A stretch of 11,080 nt of DNA from a virus (lineage: Duplodnaviria; Heunggongvirae; Uroviricota; Caudoviricetes), in the IMG/VR virus record IMGVR_UViG_2778261641_000016; one strand, given 5' to 3'. The notes under the pieces are model-generated. The model was not told where the DNA came from. It searched no databases and saw only the letters and a list, made by a program, of their open reading frames with translations. The translations under genes were made by a program, and so were the position numbers. This document shows positions 1-11,080 of the stretch, piece by piece. Numbering within the stretch: position 1 is the stretch's first letter; every line of letters starts with the position of its first letter.

Positions 1-225
1 CAATATGGTGCCGCAGTAAAAGCGGCAGAAGCACAGCGACAGTCACTGATTGATACTGCAATGGCTTCCATTAGTCTGATTCAACTGAAATTACAGGCCG
101 GACGGGAGTTGACGCAGGCAGAAACAACCCGACTTAACGCTGTGCTGGATTACATTGACGCGGTGACGGCAACAGATACCAGCACCGCACCGGATGTCAT
201 CTGGCCTGAACTGCCGGAGGCGTAG
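1..225 (+). CDS. phage tail fiber assembly protein, C-terminal part (5' end outside window)
   Basis: Frame 1 is open from base 1 to TAG at 223-225. Translation ends ...TQAETTRLNAVLDYIDAVTATDTSTAPDVIWPELPEA*, which matches the conserved C-terminal tail of lambdoid/P2-type Tfa chaperones as I recall them. No start codon in the window. Confidence 0.75.
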   Translation, partial: QYGAAVKAAEAQRQSLIDTAMASISLIQLKLQAGRELTQAETTRLNAVLDYIDAVTATDTSTAPDVIWPELPEA

Positions 226-459
226 GCCATTCAATATCTGGCACACAGGACAAAACTGAGACACACAAGGCTTTGCACTGTATTGCAAGGCTTTGTTCTC
301 TCCTGTGGATGTGTGTCTACATATTTGAAGATTGTTGTGCCGTATTTGTGACATACGCATGACAACATCATGCATCAACTTTCTGTTTGTGCCATCAACT
401 ATAGCTTAGTGAATGCGGTTAATGCTTGCTAAAACAGATAGTTATGATTGGTGCTACAG

Positions 460-505
460 ATTCGTAATGCGAAGGTCGTAGGTTCGACTCCTATTATCGG
501 CACCA
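460..505 (+). pseudogene. 3' half of a tRNA-Thr gene (thrW-type, anticodon loop through CCA); attachment-site remnant
   Basis: ATTCGTAATGCGAAGGTCGTAGGTTCGACTCCTATTATCGGCACCA contains an anticodon loop TTCGTAA (CGT), T-arm GTAGG-TTCGACT-CCTAT, acceptor 3' strand TATCGGC, discriminator A and CCA. The matching 5' acceptor strand GCCGATA is absent upstream, so this is a fragment and not a functional tRNA. Identity to E. coli thrW is from memory. Confidence 0.65.
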
Positions 506-1085
506 TCAACAGAAAATCCCGTAAAAACAGCATTCTTTAGCATGTTTATCTAACGGTTTGTAACTTCTGTTCTAACGTCTGTTAGCACTGGTAAACGCCT
601 TTGCGTTGTATCGGCTCAAGTATTGTACAACGTACTGGCGGGTAGTTACCAGGCTCAAGCCCGAACAGCATTAGAAATTATGCCATCCCTTGAAGCTAAA
701 AGAGTTGCCGGACTCTCTAAACACATCACTTGAACCCTTAGCGATACGTTCCGCGCTTCGTGCGGCGCTCAATGATGCTACACGTCGAGATGACGTTGCA
801 GAAAATAAACAGGCGTAATGTTGGGAAGACTAACCGGATCGGGAAAGAATCCGGCTCTGCCACGGTTTCGATCACCGGAGTATAACGATCACCTGATAAG
901 AGAACGTGCTAAGGCTTTATCCTCCCTGCGAAGGGATTACACCCTGCGGAAGCGCTACGCGCCGCCTTTTCTTATGTGCCCAACACGGCACGTAATGGTC
1001 ATCCATTATCTGCACCATTGTAACTTTCGTTGTACTGCCTCTCTGATGTACGTTGAGCGCTGGCAGATTCAGCGGAGGGGATATC

Positions 1086-1244
1086 ATGTCAAAAGCTAAC
1101 CAAAAAGCAGCCACGAAGCGCAACAACCGTAAGATTCACGCCCGTAAATTCCTGGCAACACCAGAGGGGAAAGCCTGGCTTGCTAAGAAGCAGGAAGAGC
1201 GAGAGGAAATCAAGTTGGCGCGAGCTGCAAACTTGATGTTTTGA
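1086..1244 (+). CDS. small, strongly basic hypothetical protein (52 aa)
   Basis: ATG at 1086 lies 6 nt after SD GGAGGG (1074-1079), in frame with track ORF 1053..1244. Product MSKANQKAATKRNNRKIHARKF... is Lys/Arg-rich. Stop TGA 1242-1244. Confidence 0.45.
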   Translation: MSKANQKAATKRNNRKIHARKFLATPEGKAWLAKKQEEREEIKLARAANLMF

Positions 1245-1247
1245 GAT

Positions 1248-1263
1248 GGGGCTAATCAGCCCC
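1248..1263. terminator. GC hairpin between convergent genes (possible terminator)
   Basis: GGGGCT-AATC-AGCCCC perfect 6-bp stem immediately after the stop of the 1086..1244 gene. It overlaps the stop codon of the convergent minus-strand gene and has no adjacent U-tract, so function is uncertain. Confidence 0.3.
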
Positions 1264-2029
1264 TATTGCCCCTATGCTTTTTTTCGAATCTTGTCACAAC
1301 TCTATCCAACCATTTGGGTTCTTCTCTAAGATCTGAGTAGTAACAATTTTCTGGAACCGCGTTCCAGAAAGCAGTTATTGCGTTAGCAAAATCTACAAAT
1401 TGATCTTCTGAGACATGTAAATCGTCATGGTTAGGGACAATCTGCGTGCCTCTAACATCGGTGGGGTTTGGGTAATACTCAGGATGATCAACTGATAGTG
1501 TTTGATGTGCAGGGCCGTCTCCATGCTTGTATACGTTTACCACCAAGTTACAGGCTTTTATCCTTTCTCCGTATTCGGTTCCATTGATTGTGAGGCCAAT
1601 CCATTCGAGCAAATCAATTAGCTGATGGAAAGTTAAATTCCAGATCATGGGGGTAATCAATTCTCTTTCACACCAATTACTTAGCTCTTTGATAGTATGT
1701 TCTCTTAGTTTTTTATCAAACTGATGATACATACCTGCTGTCAACGCCAACAATACGGTATTTTGCATCTCCAGAAGCGACCGTACATAATAAATTCCCT
1801 CATGATAGGCTTGCTCGTAGGCCGCCATTGGGTCATCGTTATCTTGATCAAAATACTCAGCAGTAGTCTCCAAAAACTGTTGTTCTCTCTTCTCTGCTTC
1901 TTGTTCTAAATCACCAAACTGAGAGAGAAGCCGCCGCCTTGCCTCAGAAACGTAAAATTCATGGGGTTCAAGAAAGTATGGAAGATCGGCTCTGGCTAAC
2001 CAGAAGGTGACAAAATTTTCAGTAGACAT
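1256..2029 (-). CDS. hypothetical protein (257 aa), function unknown
   Basis: Long minus-strand ORF. Preferred start is the ATG at 2029 (MSTENFVTFW...), preceded by SD GAGGAA with 4-6 nt spacing; the track start at 2056 has no SD. No motif I can assign. Confidence 0.6.
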   Translation of the reverse strand: MSTENFVTFWLARADLPYFLEPHEFYVSEARRRLLSQFGDLEQEAEKREQQFLETTAEYFDQDNDDPMAAYEQAYHEGIYYVRSLLEMQNTVLLALTAGMYHQFDKKLREHTIKELSNWCERELITPMIWNLTFHQLIDLLEWIGLTINGTEYGERIKACNLVVNVYKHGDGPAHQTLSVDHPEYYPNPTDVRGTQIVPNHDDLHVSEDQFVDFANAITAFWNAVPENCYYSDLREEPKWLDRVVTRFEKKHRGNRG

Positions 2030-2192
2030 ACATTTCCTCAATGAAGCGATAGACATTTTGAGGTTATGTTATCTTCGGTGAGGGTTAAAATCCTCAACTG
2101 ATTCAATGGAATTGTCATTTGGTTTGAAATGCGGTAAAAGAATAAAATTCGTAATGTACGCTTTGCAGAAACAATCTGAAAATGAGGTGGTT

Positions 2193-2420
2193 ATGAGTGA
2201 ACGTTACGAATTTTTACCCAATTGCTTCCTGAAAGTCTCTATCTCATCGGGTTACTTTACTGCCATCCTTGATGGTTCGCTTCCTCCTGATACCCCTGGT
2301 TCTGTTCATGCTGATAATGCCACGCAAGTCATAATCGTACTCGATTCCTACTTCCAATTGACTGACTTACAGCATCAAGGAATTGCTAATTATCTTTGCT
2401 CTCAAGGGATGGAACTTTGA
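2193..2420 (+). CDS. hypothetical protein (75 aa)
   Basis: ATG at 2193 preceded by SD GAGGTGG (2184-2190), in frame with track ORF 2106..2420. Divergent from the 257-aa gene. Confidence 0.4.
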   Translation: MSERYEFLPNCFLKVSISSGYFTAILDGSLPPDTPGSVHADNATQVIIVLDSYFQLTDLQHQGIANYLCSQGMEL

Positions 2421-2875
2421 TAGATTGGTTGCTTAATGTTGATAATCTGACCATGCTTGCCGCATGGGCTGGGTTTGCACTATCCATTTTCCAGCTATTA
2501 AAATCCAGAACAGATCTACGCCTTTTCTTAGGTTGCGATCAGTATGAAGACAGAATTTATGTTTCCAACAAAAGCGCCCATGATGTGACGATAAGTTCGG
2601 CGGGCATAGTAACCGCCAGCGGACGCCTTAGCGATTGTTCTAACGAACATTGTGATGAATACATGATCAGCCCCATGTTGCCACGCCGATTAAAAGCCCG
2701 TGATGAAATGATCTTAGAAGTACCATTCATCAATAAGGCTCACCATAATAAGGTGCATCATCGCGGAGGGGTGTATGTTACTACATCTGATGGGAAGCTG
2801 TTCAGTGATGTTAGTTGGCTGCGTCGTCGCTGGTGGTGGATATTGTCTCTGATCCTACGTGATTCCAAGCAGTGA
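2417..2875 (+). CDS. hypothetical protein with N-terminal hydrophobic (probable transmembrane) segment
   Basis: ORF in track (2396..2875) overlaps the stop of the upstream gene. Possible starts are TTG 2417 (after AGGGA at 2405-2409) or ATG 2453; the start is uncertain. Segment LAAWAGFALSIFQLL is hydrophobic. Confidence 0.4.
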   Translation: MIDWLLNVDNLTMLAAWAGFALSIFQLLKSRTDLRLFLGCDQYEDRIYVSNKSAHDVTISSAGIVTASGRLSDCSNEHCDEYMISPMLPRRLKARDEMILEVPFINKAHHNKVHHRGGVYVTTSDGKLFSDVSWLRRRWWWILSLILRDSKQ

Positions 2876-2933
2876 TTACTTATACACCGCACCAGACCAC
2901 GCTGGTTATCTGCTTGTCTTCCTTCTTCAATTG

Positions 2934-3131
2934 TTACTCCTCTTCAAAGGTCATTGTGTAGCGGCATTGCTGCGACGGCCTGAGCGTCACTGTCTCCGTA
3001 AAGTTGGCGTTGGAATAAACGCAAATCTTCGCGTTGTCTGTCTCCTGTTCGTCACTGAGAATCAGGGTTATCTGTCCGGCATTCGCCAGGACTGGCATTA
3101 CTGTCAGCGTCAGCACAAGCAAGCGTTTCAT
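2934..3131 (-). CDS. small secreted protein with Sec-type signal peptide (65 aa)
   Basis: ATG at 3131 preceded by perfect SD AAGGAG with 6-nt spacing. N-terminus MKRLLVLTLTVMPVLANA has an n-h-c signal-peptide layout. The SD overlaps the stop of the upstream recombinase gene, suggesting co-transcription. Confidence 0.55.
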   Translation of the reverse strand: MKRLLVLTLTVMPVLANAGQITLILSDEQETDNAKICVYSNANFTETVTLRPSQQCRYTMTFEEE

Positions 3132-3141
3132 GCGTATCTCC

Positions 3142-3702
3142 TTATAAGTCCATCTCATTGATCACACGGCTAACGGCTTGCTTGTCTAAATCCAGATAGC
3201 GCCTGGTGTCAGTGATGTTGCTGTGATTAAGCACGGTCATAGCTAAAGCGATGTTGTTTGCTGAACGCTTGTAGATGGCATTCCCGCCAGCTTTGCGGAA
3301 GCTGTGAGCTGATACAGTGCCATGAATACCGATAGCTTTAGCGGCCTCTGCGATCTGCTTGCTCACTTCTTCGCGTCGTACAGGCGCTTGCTTGTTCATT
3401 GATCGGTTACGCTGGCTTCTGAACACATGCACATCATGCGGATACTCAGCACGGCGACGAGCAATCATCTGCACCACTGGAGCAGGGAGAGTGAGGGCTT
3501 TACGCTTCCCTGTCTTCTGTTCTTCTATGTCAATCTCACCGTTGATCACTTCGTCGAAGCGTAACGCTACGGCATCCCCCACACGCAGTACAGCGGCTTG
3601 CATCATTAACGTAACGTCAGCTATCAGGCTCTTGTTATGAGCGTTTAGCCACTCCCTGATCGCTTTGGCTTGCTGTTCGTCTAACACTACTGCTCTGTTC
3701 AA
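3142..3702 (-). CDS. small tyrosine recombinase (catalytic domain only; FimB/FimE-size integrase/invertase, or truncated integrase)
   Basis: Product carries the catalytic signature in order: Arg in VLRVGDAVALRFDEV, HxxR in HSFRK, and HSNITDTRRY near the C-terminus. Probable start TTG at 3702 after SD GGGAGGG; the track start at 3774 is also TTG but has no SD. There is no N-terminal arm/core-binding domain. Confidence 0.65.
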   Translation of the reverse strand: MNRAVVLDEQQAKAIREWLNAHNKSLIADVTLMMQAAVLRVGDAVALRFDEVINGEIDIEEQKTGKRKALTLPAPVVQMIARRRAEYPHDVHVFRSQRNRSMNKQAPVRREEVSKQIAEAAKAIGIHGTVSAHSFRKAGGNAIYKRSANNIALAMTVLNHSNITDTRRYLDLDKQAVSRVINEMDL

Positions 3703-3799
3703 TTTACCCTCCCATAAAGACACACATCTAAACTCAACGAAACAAACAATATGATCAATTTCAGTAAGTTGCAATATAAATGATCAAAAATCGAACTGT

Positions 3800-4009
3800 C
3801 TTGTGTGTGGTAAATGGCGCGATTGCGTCCAGTGCTTAACGACCTCCAGGGCCGCCTCCAGATCGAAAATTTCTTCTCCTCTAAATATCTTGAACAAAAT
3901 CATGATGTTGGCATTTATAAACATGTGTTTGAACATTGCCAAATCCTCAACTCTGCACGAAGAACAGCGGCAACAGCGGAACATCACACTACCAATGCTT
4001 GTGTGTGGT
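3800..4009. repeat. pair of 12-bp direct repeats CTTGTGTGTGGT (3800-3811 and 3998-4009)
   Basis: Exact 12-mer present twice, 198 bp apart, directly upstream of the recombinase gene. Confidence 0.4.
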
Positions 4010-4080
4010 TATTGTCTATCTCATTGATTTAAATCTGATAAATGTAAGGTTGTTAGGCGAGGGCGGGGCTAACCTGCCTG

Positions 4081-4109
4081 TATGCACAAATTATGCGGAG
4101 TTTATGCAC
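4081..4109 (+). repeat. three TATGC(A/G) direct repeats phased at 11 bp (iteron-like)
   Basis: TATGCAC at 4081, TATGCGG at 4092, TATGCAC at 4103, with exact helical-turn spacing, directly after a GC box GGCGAGGGCGGGG (4056-4068). Confidence 0.4.
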
Positions 4110-4460
4110 TTGAAACTGAGTGTGTAATGAAATGATTAGAATGCTAATCAATTGGTGGATTTTGGCATGAAAAAGAAACATCGTTTCATTTTAGAAAACT
4201 CGTTCAGCACATTGCACCTGTCATGAAACTCCTCATTGTGGACAATGATCGCTGTGAGCCGCATGGCGCAAGGCTTTACGCAAAGTGAGTGATGGTTACT
4301 ATCTTGCTGACTATGGCAACTTTACCCATGTAACAACGGCAATCTTTACCTGTCATTTAAGATAGGCTTAGCTATGATTATCGTGTTGTTTTGATAGGAA
4401 TAACCTCTCGTTACTCTTAGTGTTGTTGCATGGATGAATCAGAGTTAGTTGGGGGCGTTA

Positions 4461-4541
4461 TACATCAAAATGATGTATAGATGCATGGGATACGCATCAA
4501 ATTGATGTATGGATCGGCAAACTACACATCAAATTGATGTT
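4461..4541. promoter_or_regulatory. array of three inverted-repeat sites CATCA-N3-TGATG phased at 32 bp (operator-like)
   Basis: tACATCAAAATGATGTa (centre 4469), cGCATCAAATTGATGTa (centre 4501), cACATCAAATTGATGTt (centre 4533). Half-site copies recur at the downstream promoters. Confidence 0.5.
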
Positions 4542-5091
4542 CTATACAAAGAGATTCTAAAAGCGATCTCTAAAAGAGAGCTTTTAGAAGATCTTGTTAA
4601 AGATTCGCTTTGCTGGCGCGTATCGCCTGGCAAGTGACCTGATTCGCCTTTGGGGGCTACTCGGTCAGCCGCTCACGACGCAGCGTAGCGCATCTGTCTG
4701 TGATTGTGCCAGGGCTTCGCCCTCGTGAAACGAGGCACAGAAGCTATGCGCCGTGTGCGCAATGTCTTTCAGCATAACTTCTGCCTGTCTTCCATGCTCC
4801 GCATTCATCCATGCAAAGTTAGCCCACGGCTAAGGATTCACTGGTCGCTGATGGCTCCAGTTCATCCAGCCTCAATCCAATACCATCACCTACTATCCTG
4901 ATAACTAACGTTATCCCTCAGTAGTTGTGCTATTGGTTTCGGGAGTAAGTGCCAGAGGGCGGCGGTAACGCAAACGGAACGCCCCAGACGCGCTGAGAGC
5001 GAATTTGAGAGGATAGGGAGGGGATTGCAACTCTCAGGCTTTCAAACCTGTTAGAAAGCGATAGACCGCGTTTTATGATGACATGAATGAA

Positions 5092-5120
5092 TTGATCACA
5101 ACGTGGAAATGCGCTATAAT
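5092..5120 (+). promoter_or_regulatory. sigma70-like promoter (TTGATC - 17 bp - TATAAT)
   Basis: -35 TTGATC at 5092-5097, 17-nt spacer, perfect -10 TATAAT at 5115-5120; points into the downstream operon. Confidence 0.5.
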
Positions 5121-5142
5121 TTGAAAGGGATTTAAATAAGTG

Positions 5143-5171
5143 TTGACATTTAAATCATTTCATGTTAAAGT
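5143..5171 (+). promoter_or_regulatory. second tandem sigma70-like promoter (TTGACA - 17 bp - TAAAGT with TG extension)
   Basis: Perfect -35 TTGACA at 5143-5148, 17-nt spacer, -10 TAAAGT at 5166-5171 preceded by TGt. The half-site AAATGATGTA (5172-5181) sits at the predicted transcription start. Confidence 0.45.
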
Positions 5172-5266
5172 AAATGATGTAGGGTAATGAAAGCATTCAT
5201 CCCGTCCTCATCTCAGGCATCCAGCCTAACGCAAACAATCCAACTTACACCGCACTATCAGGCAAC

Positions 5267-5515
5267 GTGATTAACGTTCTCCCTGGATGGTGTTTCTGTG
5301 TTTCTAACGCAAGGAGAACCAAAATTAAGTATTTTAATCCAGAACTTGTCTTCGAGGCTTTAAAGGCCGGAAGCCAGACGCGAAATGCAATAAACAGCCA
5401 GCGAGCAGCCGCACAACGGCAAGGATATTTCGAACACGCTGAAAGATTGCGTAAAGGAATCGAACTTTACGATCAATGGAAAGCTGAACAGGCTGAAACC
5501 ACCACCAACGAATAA
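5267..5515 (+). CDS. hypothetical protein; start codon uncertain
   Basis: Open frame in track from GTG 5267 to TAA 5513-5515. A strong SD AAGGAGAA (5311-5318) lies inside it but no in-frame ATG/GTG/TTG follows within 15 nt; only ATT at 5325. Confidence 0.35.
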   Translation: MINVLPGWCFCVSNARRTKIKYFNPELVFEALKAGSQTRNAINSQRAAAQRQGYFEHAERLRKGIELYDQWKAEQAETTTNE

Positions 5516-5533
5516 ACCAGAAGGAGAAACCAA

Positions 5534-5710
5534 ATGAGCGAAATCCAGAAGAAGAAACCAGCCGGAACATTCGTAAAACTGCCGGATGAAGTGTTTAGTA
5601 CTTTGTTCAAAGAGGCGCGAGCGAGAGGCGTAACAGTGCAGGAGATGTTAATTGACGCTGCAACCACACTTTCCACATCAATTAAGAACGGAGAACGTTC
5701 TACCAAATAA
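5534..5710 (+). CDS. small DNA-binding protein, ribbon-helix-helix-like (58 aa)
   Basis: ATG 5534 is 7 nt after perfect SD AAGGAG (5521-5526). Product MSEIQKKKPAGTFVKLPDEVFSTLFKEARARGVTVQEMLIDAA... has the beta-strand/helix/helix pattern of Arc/CopG-type proteins. Not in the ORF track because it is under 60 aa. Confidence 0.55.
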   Translation: MSEIQKKKPAGTFVKLPDEVFSTLFKEARARGVTVQEMLIDAATTLSTSIKNGERSTK

Positions 5711-5724
5711 GGATACACCCTAAC

Positions 5725-6465
5725 ATGACTGACATTATAAACAGTAAGGCTTTTAGTTTCACCAACACCGAAGACGCATTTAACGAATGCACCAGGATCA
5801 CCAATCTTAAAACAGGCGTAACAGAGTCCCTGTCTCCTGCTGATAAGCAGTTTTACGTCAGAATGCGCCATCGTTATTATCGCTTTGCGATAGAGTTGGG
5901 CGGTACTTATTACGATGACATTGATCAACTTGGTGCAAGTATTGGTGTCAGCTCGGCTACGGCAACACGTATTGTTGCAAAGTTGAAGAAAATCGGACTG
6001 ATCGCCAGTAATAAGCCAAAGCGCTCTAACCAATGGACTATAACGCCACTCACGCCGCAAAACTTCACCTTTGAACGTGATCGTAATGCGATGGAACGTG
6101 ATTCCGCGCCGGAATGGGTAGATTGTCTGAAACATCCCGTGTTTGGCAAAGCTAAAGAAGACGTAGCGCCAGAGGAAGAAAAACAGCAGTCAGTGCCAGA
6201 AGAGGCCAAAGCAGATCCGAAGCCGGAGAAGCCAAAGAAAATGCCTACGAAGAAACCCGCCTCCATTCCAGCTAAAGATATTAAGATAGAGCCAGTTAAT
6301 TTAAACTTTCTTGAGGGTTATCGGGATGAATGGGAGAATCCTGAAAAGAATCTACCAGTTTCACAACATCCGAAAATCAGATGGCTACTTATTAACGGAT
6401 ACCTGGACACAGAGAAGAATCCAAAACTTAAACCAATCTACGAGGAAATAGAACATTTATGCTGA
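5725..6465 (+). CDS. winged-helix DNA-binding protein with long Pro/Lys/Glu-rich linker (possible phage O-type replication initiator or regulator)
   Basis: 246-aa ORF. The N-terminal part has an HTH-like segment (DIDQLGASIGVSSATATRIVAKLKKIGLIAS), followed by a low-complexity linker (EEEKQQSVPEEAKADPKPEKPKKMPTKKPASIP). The domain layout resembles replisome-organiser proteins; assignment is from pattern only. Confidence 0.6.
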   Translation: MTDIINSKAFSFTNTEDAFNECTRITNLKTGVTESLSPADKQFYVRMRHRYYRFAIELGGTYYDDIDQLGASIGVSSATATRIVAKLKKIGLIASNKPKRSNQWTITPLTPQNFTFERDRNAMERDSAPEWVDCLKHPVFGKAKEDVAPEEEKQQSVPEEAKADPKPEKPKKMPTKKPASIPAKDIKIEPVNLNFLEGYRDEWENPEKNLPVSQHPKIRWLLINGYLDTEKNPKLKPIYEEIEHLC

Positions 6466-6920
6466 AAACGGTTATACCCAAACAATACAACGAACGTGAT
6501 CTTAACATCATCCATCTTGCCAGTTTATTAAATCCAGAAGTTGAAAGAGGTGTTGCATTCGAACAAGCGCAAGAACTTGTAGATGTTTACGCTGAGCGAG
6601 GTGAATCAAGTTACGCTAATGCTCTTGTTACGCTATTCAATGCAGCGATGAAGCCACCGAAAGAGATAGAATGTAAAATGACATCCCCACATCTTCACGA
6701 TAAGAATCTGTCTCCTTCGGAACGTCTGGTATTAATGCACCTCGAATCACTGCCATCATTAACAAATGTGAAACAGGAGTCAATAGCGATAGTGTTGGGG
6801 ATAAGTGTGGCAACTGTATCCAGTGCGATTCGCAAGCTTCGCCGCAATGATTATCTAACTACTACGTTAATCAAACCTGGTCGCGGTAAAGGATGCGACA
6901 TTACACTTACGACTAAATAA
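6459..6920 (+). CDS. hypothetical protein with C-terminal winged-helix DNA-binding motif (153 aa)
   Basis: Start overlaps the upstream stop (ATGCTGA), implying translational coupling. C-terminal region SPSERLVLMHLESL...ESIAIVLGISVATVSSAIRKLRRNDYL is HTH-like. Confidence 0.55.
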   Translation: MLKTVIPKQYNERDLNIIHLASLLNPEVERGVAFEQAQELVDVYAERGESSYANALVTLFNAAMKPPKEIECKMTSPHLHDKNLSPSERLVLMHLESLPSLTNVKQESIAIVLGISVATVSSAIRKLRRNDYLTTTLIKPGRGKGCDITLTTK

Positions 6921-7024
6921 CAACAATCGGGAAACTTTTATGATTACTGCTTTATGGTGGTTCACCATATTCTATGGCGTTTACGTTATAACCAGACAAG
7001 GAGTTTCCCCTCTACGAGGAATGA

Positions 7025-7408
7025 ATGGGACGAAAAGAACGAAGTAACCTTGTTAGAATCGAAAAAGCCACACGCATCAGCAAACGTAAATACACCTCTT
7101 CTCTACAAGACCTCGCACGAGAGTCTATTCCTGGTGAGATGGTGACAACTATTAAAGAATATCCCGCAGTAGTACCAAATGGATTAGAGTTTGAACTATT
7201 GCAGGATGTTCTATCGTCAACGGATAACGTTTATTACAAACCACGACGCAGACGCGAATATATTATAGATAGTAGCCATCTCAAGAAATGGCAAATAGCA
7301 GGATTTGAACATTACGCCGATTATATTGGGTATTGTCAAACCTGGGGGCTATCCCAGCACACACAAGAGTTTGATATTCTCTTTGACGACAAGGAAAACA
7401 ATGAATAA
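7025..7408 (+). CDS. hypothetical protein (127 aa), basic N-terminus
   Basis: ATG 7025 is 5 nt after GAGG (7016-7019). Its stop overlaps the next start (ATGAATAA). Confidence 0.5.
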   Translation: MGRKERSNLVRIEKATRISKRKYTSSLQDLARESIPGEMVTTIKEYPAVVPNGLEFELLQDVLSSTDNVYYKPRRRREYIIDSSHLKKWQIAGFEHYADYIGYCQTWGLSQHTQEFDILFDDKENNE

Positions 7409-7739
7409 TAAAACTATGGACACAGTGAACACCCTAATTAACTCTTTCCACGACAACTGGCATTTACCAACCTTACAGCTTGTTAATGCAGCGTGGCGTG
7501 AGAGAACGCCCTCCGCGCTTCTGGAAGCGGTGCAATACACTGAACAGGCAATCACTGCCCTTGAACATCTGCAAACGTCTGTAGCTCGTTTGGTGCAGCG
7601 TGACGGCAGTTCGATCACACCAGAAGAAGCGTGGCGTGTAGCTAATGACCTTGAGGAGCTTGCTTGCTCTCTGCAATACATCACCGTTGAACTCGGAGAG
7701 CTTTCCATCCAGATCGCGGAAGAATGCGCCATAACATAA
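7401..7739 (+). CDS. hypothetical protein (112 aa)
   Basis: ATG 7401 is 5 nt after AAGGA (7391-7395), in frame with track ORF 7305..7739. The longer track start has no SD. Stop TAA 7737-7739. Confidence 0.55.
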   Translation: MNNKTMDTVNTLINSFHDNWHLPTLQLVNAAWRERTPSALLEAVQYTEQAITALEHLQTSVARLVQRDGSSITPEEAWRVANDLEELACSLQYITVELGELSIQIAEECAIT

Positions 7740-7754
7740 AAGTTACTAAATGTC

Positions 7755-7783
7755 TTGACATTATGTGCTATATGTGTCATAAT
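7755..7783 (+). promoter_or_regulatory. near-consensus sigma70 promoter (TTGACA - 17 bp - TGtCATAAT)
   Basis: Perfect -35 TTGACA at 7755-7760, 17-nt spacer, extended -10 TGtCATAAT (7775-7783). It starts 16 bp after the stop of the upstream operon. Confidence 0.6.
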
Positions 7784-7789
7784 GAGTTA

Positions 7790-8334
7790 TAGGGTAAGTA
7801 TTCGAATCACTTCACCCTCGTATGTCAATACGCACTCCTTGAGAATGCCGTTCCCATAGCGGCATTCTCTCCCTCTGAATGCTATTTCTGAAAGTGTTGG
7901 TTCTTTGTCTTGTTTGTTCCGAAGGAATGCGCGGGATGTAATATCTCGTTGTGTTGGTATTGCATCGCAATCACCGCGCATCTCCGACTTTTTCAGAAAG
8001 GGCATTCGCTCTTTGCTCATTCATTCCGTTAGGATGAATGTAGTCAGACTGAATAAACGCCGTCAGCGGTAGTTACGTTCAGGCTGGCAATCTCTTATTA
8101 CTATTCCAGTGGTGATATTGAGATTCCATTCCCACTTCTCGCCATGACAGAAGGGCTTCTGTTTTGAAGTGGGAGCAATGACGGGCGATCCTACTTCTGT
8201 TATTCGTAACAGTTGCGCCCTTCATTTTTTCAAGAAGCCATTCTTTAACATCATAATCCTCCGAAACGAAAATGATTTTAACAGAATGCTTTCTAACAAG
8301 GGCATATTCTCCAGGGGCTTAATCGCCCCTTTTT
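7790..8334 (+). ncRNA. candidate ~545-nt non-coding leader transcript (promoter to intrinsic terminator); speculative
   Basis: No plus-strand ORF of 60 aa or more between the promoter and the terminator. Contains a perfect 10-bp stem hairpin (7841-7850 / 7860-7869). Only short ORFs without credible SD. Confidence 0.3.
8313..8334 (+). terminator. rho-independent terminator
   Basis: GGGGC-TTAATC-GCCCC stem-loop (8314-8329) followed directly by TTTTT (8330-8334). Confidence 0.6.
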
Positions 8335-8405
8335 AACAATCTGCATGTAACACTTCCGTTATCAATGGAAGGATAAACGCAGTTATAACGCGAAGGAACA
8401 ACACA

Positions 8406-8621
8406 ATGTTCTTAATAAACAATCGCGACCGAATCCTAAAATACAAATCCGAAGTGATTCAAGTTAATCCTGAGTTAATAGCTAAAGTGGCTGAAATGGC
8501 AGGATGTACCGTTGAAGAAATAGAAAAAGCTGTAGACCAGTATTTCCCTTCTGAGGACACACCTCAACTTAGTATGCAGGAACGGATCGCAATCAAATCC
8601 AAGGAAATCAAACAACAATGA
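8406..8621 (+). CDS. small hypothetical protein (71 aa), first gene of the head operon
   Basis: ATG 8406 is 7 nt after SD GAAGGAA. Its stop overlaps the start of the next gene (ATGA), implying translational coupling. Confidence 0.55.
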   Translation: MFLINNRDRILKYKSEVIQVNPELIAKVAEMAGCTVEEIEKAVDQYFPSEDTPQLSMQERIAIKSKEIKQQ

Positions 8622-8977
8622 TTGTAGACCTAACCGAACTTTTCCCAATTCGTAAGAGTTTCACTGACGTATTGAGCTACGCCACTGATTCTTTTGCAGT
8701 CGTAGAAGGCCGTGTTTTCGACCTGCCAGCAGATATTGAATGCGGCGATGTTATCGGCGCTGATGGCGCTCTATACACCTCCGGCGATGATGCCTTTGTG
8801 GTGGTAAGTGATTTCGTGAGTGCTGGCGACGGTAAAACCGTGAATGTCCTACGTGCGCCTAATGTTGGTAGCTTCGTAGCACTGAAAGCCGACAACCTGC
8901 ACGCAGCTAATCACGCCGCAGCTATCACCACGCTCGAATCCAAAGGGTTCGTATGCCGTCCATTCTTCACCTCTTAA
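8618..8977 (+). CDS. probable phage head decoration protein (119 aa)
   Basis: Gly/Ala/Asp/Val-rich small protein encoded immediately upstream of the major capsid gene, the same position as gpD before gpE in lambda-like heads. Assignment rests on position and composition, not on recognised sequence identity. Confidence 0.5.
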   Translation: MIVDLTELFPIRKSFTDVLSYATDSFAVVEGRVFDLPADIECGDVIGADGALYTSGDDAFVVVSDFVSAGDGKTVNVLRAPNVGSFVALKADNLHAANHAAAITTLESKGFVCRPFFTS

Positions 8978-8993
8978 TCAAGGAAGATAAATA

Positions 8994-10025
8994 ATGAGTA
9001 AAATCGCAATTGGGCGTGAGATGGTCGATTTAGCGCCAATCTTCCAGGCTCTGCCGGAACGTAACTATCTTATGAATGCCCTCGACCTATTCGACGGGGT
9101 AGGTGTTCAGAATCCGAAAGTGGTGGTGACACAGCTTCTGGATGATAACTACAGCCTGTTTAACACCCCGCAGAGCCGTTATTCATCAAACCACGACACT
9201 ACCGCGCGTCAGAATGGCAAAGAATACCTTATCGAGATTCCTTGGTTTGCAAGGGAAGATGAGTTTAAACCTGTAGACGTACAAGGCCGCAGAGTGCAGG
9301 GAACGGACTACGAGCAAACCGTTACCGACCTGTACACCGAATACACTGGCAAACATAAGATTGCTTATCTGCGTACCCGTGAGTCTTACCTGGCCCGTGC
9401 TCTGTTCAAAGGTGAAGTTTATACGCCTGCAACTGATGACCTACTGATCTCTTATGCTGAACTGTTCGGTGTGGTGCCAATGACAGCCAGCGTGAGCACA
9501 GCGACAGCGGCACAGGATTTTGATGCGATCTTAGACAAAGTTCAGGCTGCCGCAGGTGGATTGGCTGGACAGATTGAACGAGTGATCGTATTCGCTAAAC
9601 CTGCTGCATTTAGCCAGATTCGCTTCTCTGACAGTATGTCTAAGGCGTTCCAGTATGTAGCGCCATATGACGACCGTAACCTATTCTACCAGCGTCACGA
9701 GCTTCTCCCTGGTGTTAGTACGTTTAGCCTACCTGGTGCGCCTATCGACATTGTTAAAGTGACAGATCCGCTGATCCTTGCACAGATGCCAGATGATGCT
9801 GACATGGTGGCGGTTCCGGTGTTCAGTAAAGGCACAAATGCTTATCAGAACATCTACGGCGCTGCCTCTGGTAACTTTGCGCTGATCGATGCTGCACCTG
9901 CTGAATACTACTCTTGGGGCTACCTGAGCGAGCGCGGCGATGCTTACCACGTTATGCACGAAAACAGCGCATTACCAGTGAACCATGCGTTAGGTATGCA
10001 GGTGAAGATCACCATCACTGCTTAA
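8994..10025 (+). CDS. phage major capsid protein, lambda gpE-like (343 aa)
   Basis: ATG 8994 after AAGGAAG. Length matches the 341-aa lambda E protein, and local blocks (ALFKGEVY, VIVFAKP...F) resemble E-family blocks as I recall them. It follows the decoration-like gene. Confidence 0.75.
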   Translation: MSKIAIGREMVDLAPIFQALPERNYLMNALDLFDGVGVQNPKVVVTQLLDDNYSLFNTPQSRYSSNHDTTARQNGKEYLIEIPWFAREDEFKPVDVQGRRVQGTDYEQTVTDLYTEYTGKHKIAYLRTRESYLARALFKGEVYTPATDDLLISYAELFGVVPMTASVSTATAAQDFDAILDKVQAAAGGLAGQIERVIVFAKPAAFSQIRFSDSMSKAFQYVAPYDDRNLFYQRHELLPGVSTFSLPGAPIDIVKVTDPLILAQMPDDADMVAVPVFSKGTNAYQNIYGAASGNFALIDAAPAEYYSWGYLSERGDAYHVMHENSALPVNHALGMQVKITITA

Positions 10026-10088
10026 TGAGCAAGCGGGAGCCTGACCCGCTGGAAATAATCAGGCTATTGAATAGGGCGTGTGAACGTT

Positions 10089-10121
10089 GGGAACATCTCC
10101 CCAGTGTTCCCGCCCTTTTTT
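10089..10121 (+). terminator. probable intrinsic terminator after the capsid gene
   Basis: GGGAACA-(9 nt loop)-TGTTCCC stem (10089-10111), then GCCC and TTTTTT (10116-10121). Confidence 0.45.
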
Positions 10122-10144
10122 ATTTCCAGAATGAGGAAAGATAA

Positions 10145-10342
10145 ATGCAAGTGATTGTAAAAAGCGCGGGGCTTCACCTCGCCGTAAATGCTGAAACAGC
10201 AGAAGAGTTATTAAATCTGGCGGGAGTGTGTCGTGTGCTTGAAATAGATCACGGTCATCTACGTCAGTTATTACATCGTGGGCGTAGTGTATCAGATGCA
10301 CTTAATTATCTGGTGAGTAAAAAAGGCGGTGGCGATGCTTGA
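10145..10342 (+). CDS. hypothetical protein (65 aa)
   Basis: ATG 10145 after strong SD GAGGAAAG. Its stop overlaps the start region of the next ORF. Confidence 0.5.
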   Translation: MQVIVKSAGLHLAVNAETAEELLNLAGVCRVLEIDHGHLRQLLHRGRSVSDALNYLVSKKGGGDA

Positions 10343-10799
10343 GATTAATACAAGTAAGATCGTCAACACCGTAACTTTCACCGTTGACAAAGGGAGTATT
10401 GCAGAGGCTAAGGCCGCAGCGGATAACCTTCAAAAGCACTTCCAGAAAATAGCCGATCCCAAGATTCGCTTCCAGGATCTGAAGCAGCGCAGACAGAAAG
10501 CCCGTCAACAAGCCGATGATGCACGTTTTAATGATAAGCCTCGTGATACGAAGGAAATGAAAGCCCAACGTGCGGCGGAGAAGCAGAAAGCCAGGGATGA
10601 AAAGGCCAATCTGAAAGCGAAGCAGCAGCTACAGAAGCGCCAAGAGACAGCCGAGCTTAAACTTCGCCATGCAGGGCTACAAGTGTCAGGAATTAAAGGT
10701 AAATACGGGCTTGATCCTAAATCTCAGTATGAAGCGTTACGTTATATTCATCAGCAAAGCGAAGAGTTTGCGAAAAGGGTATTAACTTTCGCAGCCTGA
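10329..10799 (+). CDS. hypothetical protein, highly charged Lys/Arg/Glu/Gln-rich central region (156 aa)
   Basis: Track ORF overlapping the upstream stop (start ATG 10329 or 10335). Its last ~8 codons are read out of frame from invertase-homologous DNA. Confidence 0.5.
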   Translation: MAMLEINTSKIVNTVTFTVDKGSIAEAKAAADNLQKHFQKIADPKIRFQDLKQRRQKARQQADDARFNDKPRDTKEMKAQRAAEKQKARDEKANLKAKQQLQKRQETAELKLRHAGLQVSGIKGKYGLDPKSQYEALRYIHQQSEEFAKRVLTFAA

Positions 10800-11080
10800 C
10801 CGACAGCATAGATACGTCTTCACCAATGGGACGCTTTTTCTTCCATGTCATGGGCGCACTTGCAGAAATGGAAAGGGAGCTGATAGTCGAACGTACCAGG
10901 GCGGGATTGGCTGCGGCTCGTGAAGAAGGGCGAATAGGTGGGCGTCGATCAAAGCTAACTGATGAACAGTGGGCGCAGGCAGGCAGGTTGATTGCAGCAG
11001 GTGAATCACGACAGCGTGTGGCATTAATTTACGATGTTGGGATATCGACGCTATATAAAAAATTTCCGGCAACCAGGTAA
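10772..11080 (+). pseudogene. serine DNA invertase (Pin/Gin/Hin family) C-terminal fragment, lacking the catalytic N-terminus; runs off the window end
   Basis: Translation EKGINFRSLTDSIDTSSPMGRFFFHVMGALAEMERELIVERTRAGLAAAREEGRIGGRRSKLTDEQWAQAGRLIAAGESRQRVALIYDVGISTLYKKFPATR closely matches the C-terminal half of e14 Pin as I remember it. The frame is closed by TGA at 10730-10732 and no serine-nucleophile N-terminal domain exists in any frame upstream. Confidence 0.65.

Follow-up and report, generated by a model that had tools for sequence, protein, structure and literature searches.

An orphan tRNA-Thr 3' half behind a tail fibre assembly gene as the probable attR of a thrW prophage within a decayed tandem array

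The orphan 3' half of a tRNA-Thr gene that follows a tail fibre assembly gene in the stretch of DNA analysed here (11,080 nucleotides, hereafter the window) very probably belongs to an attR, composed of a P arm, a core and B' (positions 226-506), of a temperate phage with a tyrosine-integrase module of the SfX/P22 type, resident in the chromosomal tRNA gene thrW. As such, the orphan half is an ordinary attR, an already known kind of feature that departs in nothing from known systems. The window corresponds to positions 3-11082 of NLVW01000049.1 (24,023 bp; assembly GCA_002513175.1), a contig that begins inside the tail fibre assembly gene, 2 nt before window position 1. Upstream of this contig start within the gene, we infer the body of the prophage and an attL with an intact thrW.

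The window opens on the 3' end of the tail fibre assembly gene (tfa, 1-225, plus strand), the last gene of the left-hand prophage, of which the C-terminal 74 residues (1-222) and the TAG stop codon (223-225) are present. The fragment matches the Pfam family Caudo_TAP (E = 2.7e-19) and is ~95% identical in nucleotide sequence to HK97 tfa (gp29) and to tfaE-type genes, but the type of the left prophage cannot be told from these 225 bp of tfa, as siphovirus, myovirus and podovirus prophages all carry this att-int module. The att core lies further to the right on the plus strand (46 nt, 460-505) and comprises the thrW 3' half from the anticodon loop to the CCA. Its sequence, ATTCGTAATGCGAAGGTCGTAGGTTCGACTCCTATTATCGGCACCA, matches the final 46 nt of the 76-nt thrW gene (tRNA-Thr CGU; anticodon CGT) of E. 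coli AR_0128, where thrW is annotated beside proA, at 46 of 46 positions, and it is also identical to the attP cores of phages mEp213, HK446 and SfX. The identity shared with phage attP as well as with thrW and its flank reaches T506, one base past the CCA, and the shared segment thus measures 47 nt. Since both core copies are identical, a displaced chromosomal origin and a phage-supplied origin of the copy in the window are indistinguishable. The final 25 nt of the core occur once in the window, with an expectation of 0.00 (200 shuffles, up to 3 mismatches).

No more of the tRNA gene than this half is present. When the Rfam tRNA model was applied to the stretch starting at 460, positions 460-502 aligned to model positions 30-71 as a 5'-truncated match (27.8 bits, E = 1.3e-4), and the addition of 60 nt of upstream sequence gave only a sub-threshold 19-bit match requiring a 40-nt insertion. 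ARAGORN found no complete tRNA in the window, Rfam gave no match to a full-length tRNA in the whole window or in 400-520, and the 30 nt immediately upstream of the core (430-459) agree with the thrW 5' half no better than by chance (9 of 30 positions). Together, these results rule out a complete tRNA hidden upstream of the core, and the full cloverleaf of a functional tRNA gene, with acceptor stem and D arm, is lacking from the window. The original prediction, which had described a CCA-ended 46-nt tRNA-Thr 3' half preceded by a tail fibre assembly gene and devoid of a 5' half, is therefore borne out, including upon the re-examination of the 30 nt upstream.

The 234 bp separating tfa from the tRNA half (226-459) are, judged by their sequence, the P arm of a characterised thrW-specific attachment site of the SfX/HK446/mEp213 type, that is, the phage-derived side of the attR, as recognised by alignment and by blastn against 50,697 phage records. 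In the blastn comparison, window positions 249-506 were 94.6-96.5% identical to the attP region of coliphages HK75, HK446, mEpX2 and HK542 and 92.5% identical to that of Shigella phage SfX, and a longer segment including the end of tfa (175-506) was 88% identical to mEp213 and mEp043. The gene order of mEp213 comprises the tail fibre gene, tfa, ~225 bp of spacer, attP, and int with xis (SfX-type, minus strand), and in HK446 the attP directly follows the tail fibre gene. In the phage records, the site is labelled attP, "type CP4-6; similar to thrW and ptwF". The P arm of the window further contains two copies of the motif TTGTGCCRT (335-343 and 387-395), compared to 0.14-0.20 expected, and mEp213 contains four, two in the P arm and two in the P' arm, of which the P'-arm copies are missing from the window. 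This pattern is as expected of arm-type sites, and the motif may thus be considered a putative arm-type Int-binding site.

Two other features of the P arm were inspected. A stable hairpin is predicted at ~259-318 (fold z = -3.2), and it lacks a T tract; as a consensus scan gave no hit on the plus strand either, a rho-independent terminator following tfa was rejected. At 400-410, TATAGCTTAGT resembles the thrW D-arm segment TATAGCTCAGT, and the resemblance is kept in phage attP regions. As a vestigial D arm, this stretch (10 of 11 positions identical to thrW positions 6-16) was discarded, since 7% of shuffles equal the match and it is not significant.

In lambda-type integration at a tRNA gene, the attP core equals the tRNA 3' end and is bordered by P and P' arms with arm-type Int sites, and Int exchanges strands within the core. 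A multiple alignment and a comparison of the junctions placed the end of phage homology in the window at 506. In the phages, the core is followed by the P' arm (beginning TTTAAATCAAT) and then by int, and both are absent to the right of the core in the window; in a partner attL, the P' arm would be expected to read TTAAAATCAA or TTTAAATCAA. A complete arrangement of this kind is found in the finished genome Z1323CEC0012, where proA and an intact thrW are followed by the P' arm, int, xis, a P22-like prophage of ~35 kb, a tailspike gene, a P arm 97% identical to that of the window, the 46-nt core and the flank. A four-way comparison of the attP from mEp213, the thrW site from AR_0128, and the attL and attR from Z1323CEC0012 fits the Campbell model base for base, with the window displaying the P-O-B' pattern of an attR.

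What is expected of an attR was thus found at each point of the junction. The core is identical to the 3' end of the target tRNA up to the CCA. One flank is homologous to a known P arm and joined to phage late genes (249-459 at 92.5-96.5%; 175-459 at 88%), while the other is, from 507 onwards and at ~100% identity, the DNA that lies downstream of the intact tRNA in genomes lacking this prophage. Finally, the arm-type repeats, whose binding by Int is predicted from the motif, occur on the retained arm only. The original prediction had interpreted the tRNA half as the scar of an integrase-mediated insertion at which the tfa-containing prophage ends, with a second element at the same tRNA to its right. 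All three parts of this interpretation agree with the analysis: the 234 bp before the core are the P arm expected of a characterised attP, the P' arm and int are missing beyond 506, and the DNA to the right is shared with an element that follows intact thrW in nine genomes. The exact junction of P arm, core and this second element occurs in no complete E. coli genome of the collection.

The chromosomal setting can be read from the remainder of the source contig. Beyond the window, NLVW01000049.1 carries SRAP, HEPN, lysR', paoD and paoC, the same chromosomal neighbourhood as in AR_0128. Since the contig continues into this thrW-pao neighbourhood, the locus corresponds to the chromosomal thrW region, and flank identity together with chromosomal context supports the reading of the window as a probable genuine thrW junction. 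In addition, the Logan contig SRR3957065_63 displays the same structure and starts at window position 477, with exactly 30 nt left to the end of the shared segment (506). With an assembly k that we take to be 31, a break at this position would be expected if SRR3957065 contained a second core copy with another right flank, e.g., an attL.

The thrW array of AR_0128 also contains an 82-nt "tRNA-Pro" annotated by PGAP downstream of the SRAP gene (14725-14806 of locus extract L003). ARAGORN found no tRNA in the locus of the source contig (L007) that spans this stretch by coordinate mapping. The annotated "tRNA-Pro" may be a pseudo-tRNA or the remnant of another att site.

To the right of the core, the window consists of a second element, here called element A, of which the left 10.3 kb are present before a truncation at 10774 (507-10774, plus strand; delimited by megablast and annotated by domain searches). 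Positions 460-10774 form a single megablast block of 10,315 bp that is ~100% identical in nine complete E. coli genomes, including AR_0128, AR_0118, AR_0119 and Ecol_224, where it directly follows an intact thrW. Within the window, element A encodes a phrog_19541 protein (1256-2029, minus strand), a tyrosine recombinase of 193 aa comprising the catalytic domain only (3142-3723, minus strand), a RepO/DUF6945 protein (5725-6465), an HTH_36 protein (6459-6920), a major capsid protein of the Phage_cap_E family (8994-10025) and, from 10335, the N-terminal part of a 614-aa "TolA-like" protein. Three iterons of 18 nt (4459-4540) are situated within an ORF-poor region.

The complete form of element A is seen in AR_0128, where the order is proB, proA, thrW and element A, the last measuring 13.7 kb (6047-19749 of locus extract L001). 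At its far end, a 407-aa tyrosine integrase is encoded on the minus strand with DUF6538, SAM-like and catalytic domains, and this gene is followed by ACTCCTATTATCGGCACCA, a 19-nt direct repeat of the thrW 3' end. Beyond the repeat lie a P'-type arm and the integrase, 57% identical to that of mEp213, of a degraded prophage (prophage B). The target repeats and own integrase that characterise an integrative element are thus seen in the full copies of element A in AR_0128 and XYEH3934, and in the window copy the integrase and the right repeat have been deleted. In XYEH3934, a variant of element A stands alone between thrW and the 19-nt repeat, beyond which are situated a P' arm remnant, lysR' and paoD. 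The left neighbour of element A in MS6192 is another island, whose integrase has become a pseudogene, and neither the annotation nor a search showed a tRNA at the core of this genome. Tandem accretion is thus a common occurrence at thrW, in agreement with the published experimental case of SfI and SfX (PMC3306764).

Additional details of the element were observed in these copies. At the right end of element A in AR_0128 (19683-19749 of L001), GCGAAGGTCGTAG is separated by 36 unrelated nt from ACTCCTATTATCGGCACCA, and these split pieces of the thrW 3' half suggest an older, longer att identity that was interrupted. The iteron, TAC(G/A)CATCAAATTGATGT, is an 18-nt near-palindrome present three times at a spacing of 32 nt upstream of the replication-initiator gene, and this region is probably an origin or operator of element A. 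The interval from the recombinase gene to the ORF next downstream of it is 32 bp longer in the element A of MS6192, a difference that fits one extra iteron.

At its right end, the window passes from within the TolA-like gene of element A to a point inside a pin-type invertase gene. The match to element A extends as far as 10774 and that to the pin gene of AR_0128 (100% identity) starts at 10772, leaving a 3-nt microhomology, GAA, at the junction (10772-10774). The remainder of the window (10775-11080, plus strand) is the 3' part of a Pin/Gin-type serine invertase, matching the Pfam Resolvase profile at positions 109-144 only together with HTH_7; it lacks the first ~81 of 183 codons, with the fusion at codon ~82. 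The resulting fusion ORF (10335-10799) would encode a chimera of 154 aa. NLVW01000049.1 and SRR3957065_63, contigs of two assemblies, share this junction, and it occurs in no finished E. coli genome. In AR_0128, pin is annotated as a "recombinase family protein" at the end of prophage B, beside gp53-like and tfa fragments, and the two breakpoints lie ~10,680 bp apart in the same orientation, such that ~10.68 kb are missing from the window. This fits an illegitimate deletion that removed the distal part of element A, its integrase, the right repeat and most of prophage B.

As no more than 1.6 kb separates tfa from pin in genomes such as APEC20/16, the tfa and pin fragments of the window were also considered as parts of one prophage split by an insertion. 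This was rejected because tfa and the P arm are natively linked in both mEp213 and YD786, and because the position of the pin fragment, 10.7 kb past the breakpoint in element A, is collinear with the AR_0128 array.

From these observations, the following history can be proposed. A phage attP with a 46-47-bp core identical to the thrW 3' end would have recombined at thrW, producing an attL in which the thrW 5' half is followed by the core, the P' arm and int, and where the 3' half supplied by the phage keeps the tRNA intact. The attR would then consist of tfa, the P arm, the core and the DNA formerly downstream of thrW, with the orphan 3' half remaining. This downstream DNA would already have been occupied by the 13.7-kb element A and then by the degraded, invertase-bearing prophage B, and a tandem array would have resulted. 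Later, an illegitimate deletion of ~10.7 kb removed the right part of element A with its integrase, the 19-nt repeat and most of prophage B.

The order of arrival is not readable from the sequence, and the entry of the prophage to the left of a resident element A would be the more parsimonious order, because the AR_0128-type array, which has no left prophage, matches element A, the pin remnant and the flank at ~100% identity. The reverse order, in which the tfa-containing prophage came first and element A later entered the orphan 46-nt half at the attR, would lead to the same final structure and a sequence indistinguishable from that observed, and the repeat used by element A, being only the last 19 nt of thrW, is indeed contained in the 46-nt core. 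Nevertheless, this order is considered unlikely, as the AR_0128-type array carries element A at an intact thrW in the absence of a left prophage, which makes a single extra integration at thrW the simpler account, and as the newcomer in an experimental tandem integration used the attL with the intact tRNA (PMC3306764).

That tfa, the P arm and the core represent a fossil junction, an inactive relic within a composite or rearranged element, is less probable still and can be regarded as very doubtful. A precedent for such a relic exists in YD786, in which a copy of window positions 5-508 (96.8% identical) lies ~4.3 kb inside a complete SfV/e14-like prophage in dusA, and as this fossil lies away from thrW, the presence of an orphan tRNA half is insufficient by itself to demonstrate a live junction. 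The core of the window, however, is followed by exactly the DNA downstream of thrW in a contig running into the thrW-pao neighbourhood, and the break in the Logan contig indicates a second core copy with another right flank.

The YD786 copy itself (8222-8504 of locus extract L002; L010) is followed by a HAD hydrolase, a glycosyltransferase, IS1 and the dusA-side integrase, and by neither a P' arm nor the thrW flank. It represents a fossil thrW att site that has outlasted an apparent switch to another integrase module, possibly via tandem residence and aberrant excision.

The last explanation, an artefact of short-read assembly joining a free or differently located attP-bearing phage to thrW and element A across the 47-bp repeat, has a negligible probability, for although the source is a draft assembly whose join spans this repeat and whose contig ends in the repeated gene tfa, and although the k = 31 assembly breaks in the core, ordinary reads, like the larger k-mers of standard assemblers, exceed 47 bp in length, and the same attR architecture is present in finished genomes such as Z1323CEC0012.

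Returning to the attR reading, the partner on its right deserves separate consideration. The capsid protein of element A matches Phage_cap_E over its full length (E = 8e-15), has homologues in only 46 clusters, whose source-named members are all Enterobacterales, and has no relative above 27% identity among the 50,697 phage records. Relatives of the element in Pantoea and Citrobacter are situated at tRNA-Leu(CAA), in tandem with P4-like satellites, and keep the gene order of a small recombinase, an ORF-poor region, the replication module, the capsid gene, a gene for a ~620-aa protein and a DUF6538 integrase; a PhiTE-type adaptor or a Dit-like protein is encoded in addition. The ~190-aa recombinase is conserved at 22-27% identity in the same position in these relatives, beside the ORF-poor region of ~1.3 kb, and its invariant residues include the Arg, the Lys, the HxxR motif and the Tyr of the expected tyrosine-recombinase active site. 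Being conserved at the same position, it is predicted to be a functional part of the element and not a truncated integrase or a pseudogene fragment. A FimB-like invertible switch formed by the 193-aa recombinase and the 1.3-kb ORF-poor region found no support, as all relatives compared were collinear and had no inverted pieces.

The classification of element A as a capsid-bearing satellite was weighed against the cfPICI definition. According to SatelliteFinder, the cfPICI core set includes, besides the capsid, the large terminase, the head-tail adaptor, the connector, the portal and the prohead protease (PMC10085698). Profile searches with Pfam, PHROGs and NCBIfam found no portal, terminase or protease in element A and detected only the Phage_cap_E capsid, the replication initiator, the HTH protein and the recombinases, so that element A was rejected as a cfPICI. 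A tentative alternative, which we hold to be possible yet less likely than not to be correct, is that at this junction a thrW prophage meets an element from an undescribed family of phage satellites of 13-14 kb that bear a capsid gene and integrate at tRNA genes. Such a family would, with the same reservation, combine a Phage_cap_E capsid, a catalytic-only recombinase, iterons with an initiator, a coiled-coil protein of ~615 aa and a DUF6538 integrase. Members are repeatedly found in tandem with phage-related elements, both at thrW (in the window, AR_0128 and MS6192) and at tRNA-Leu(CAA) (in Pantoea and Citrobacter), and the co-residence of this satellite-like family with other elements might be functional rather than accidental. 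Even if the satellite-family reading were true, the tRNA half would still be an ordinary attR.

The junction is of low significance in itself, as it is fully explained by textbook integrase biology with published precedents at thrW. It delimits the end of a prophage and is useful for annotation and for drawing prophage boundaries, and it reveals that thrW in the source strain is the site of a decayed tandem array made up of a prophage, a truncated satellite-like element and an invertase remnant. The family of element A, conserved, little characterised and bearing a capsid gene, may deserve a study of its own.

Among known systems, thrW is an established target of temperate phages. A 46-bp att is found at both ends of the thrW prophages SfI, SfIV and SfV (PMC3851460), P22-like phages also use thrW (PMC2629481), and in an experimental case SfI entered the attL of an SfX prophage already in place, so that both came to lie in tandem at thrW (PMC3306764). 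In the cryptic prophage CP4-6 of E. coli K-12, flanked by thrW and the pseudo-tRNA ptwF, an orphan thrW-like fragment marks the far end of the DNA inserted at thrW as in the window, whereas the content of CP4-6, judged by the annotations consulted, is unrelated to the elements of the window. The att sites of SfX, HK446, HK75, HK542, mEpX2, mEp213 and mEp043 share with the window the 46-nt core, a P arm at 88-96.5% identity and the paired TTGTGCCRT motif, and mEp213 also displays the same order of tail fibre, tfa, ~225-bp spacer and att. The window differs from the attP of these thrW phages in containing the P side only, with the P' arm, int and xis replaced by the DNA downstream of thrW. The tandem of SfI and SfX in S. 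flexneri resembles the window in its tRNA target by proA, its 46-bp core and the single core copy between two elements. Yet, the right partner in the window is a capsid-gene-bearing, satellite-like element, since truncated, instead of a serotype-converting phage, and its integrase is of the DUF6538 type and uses only the last 19 nt of thrW.
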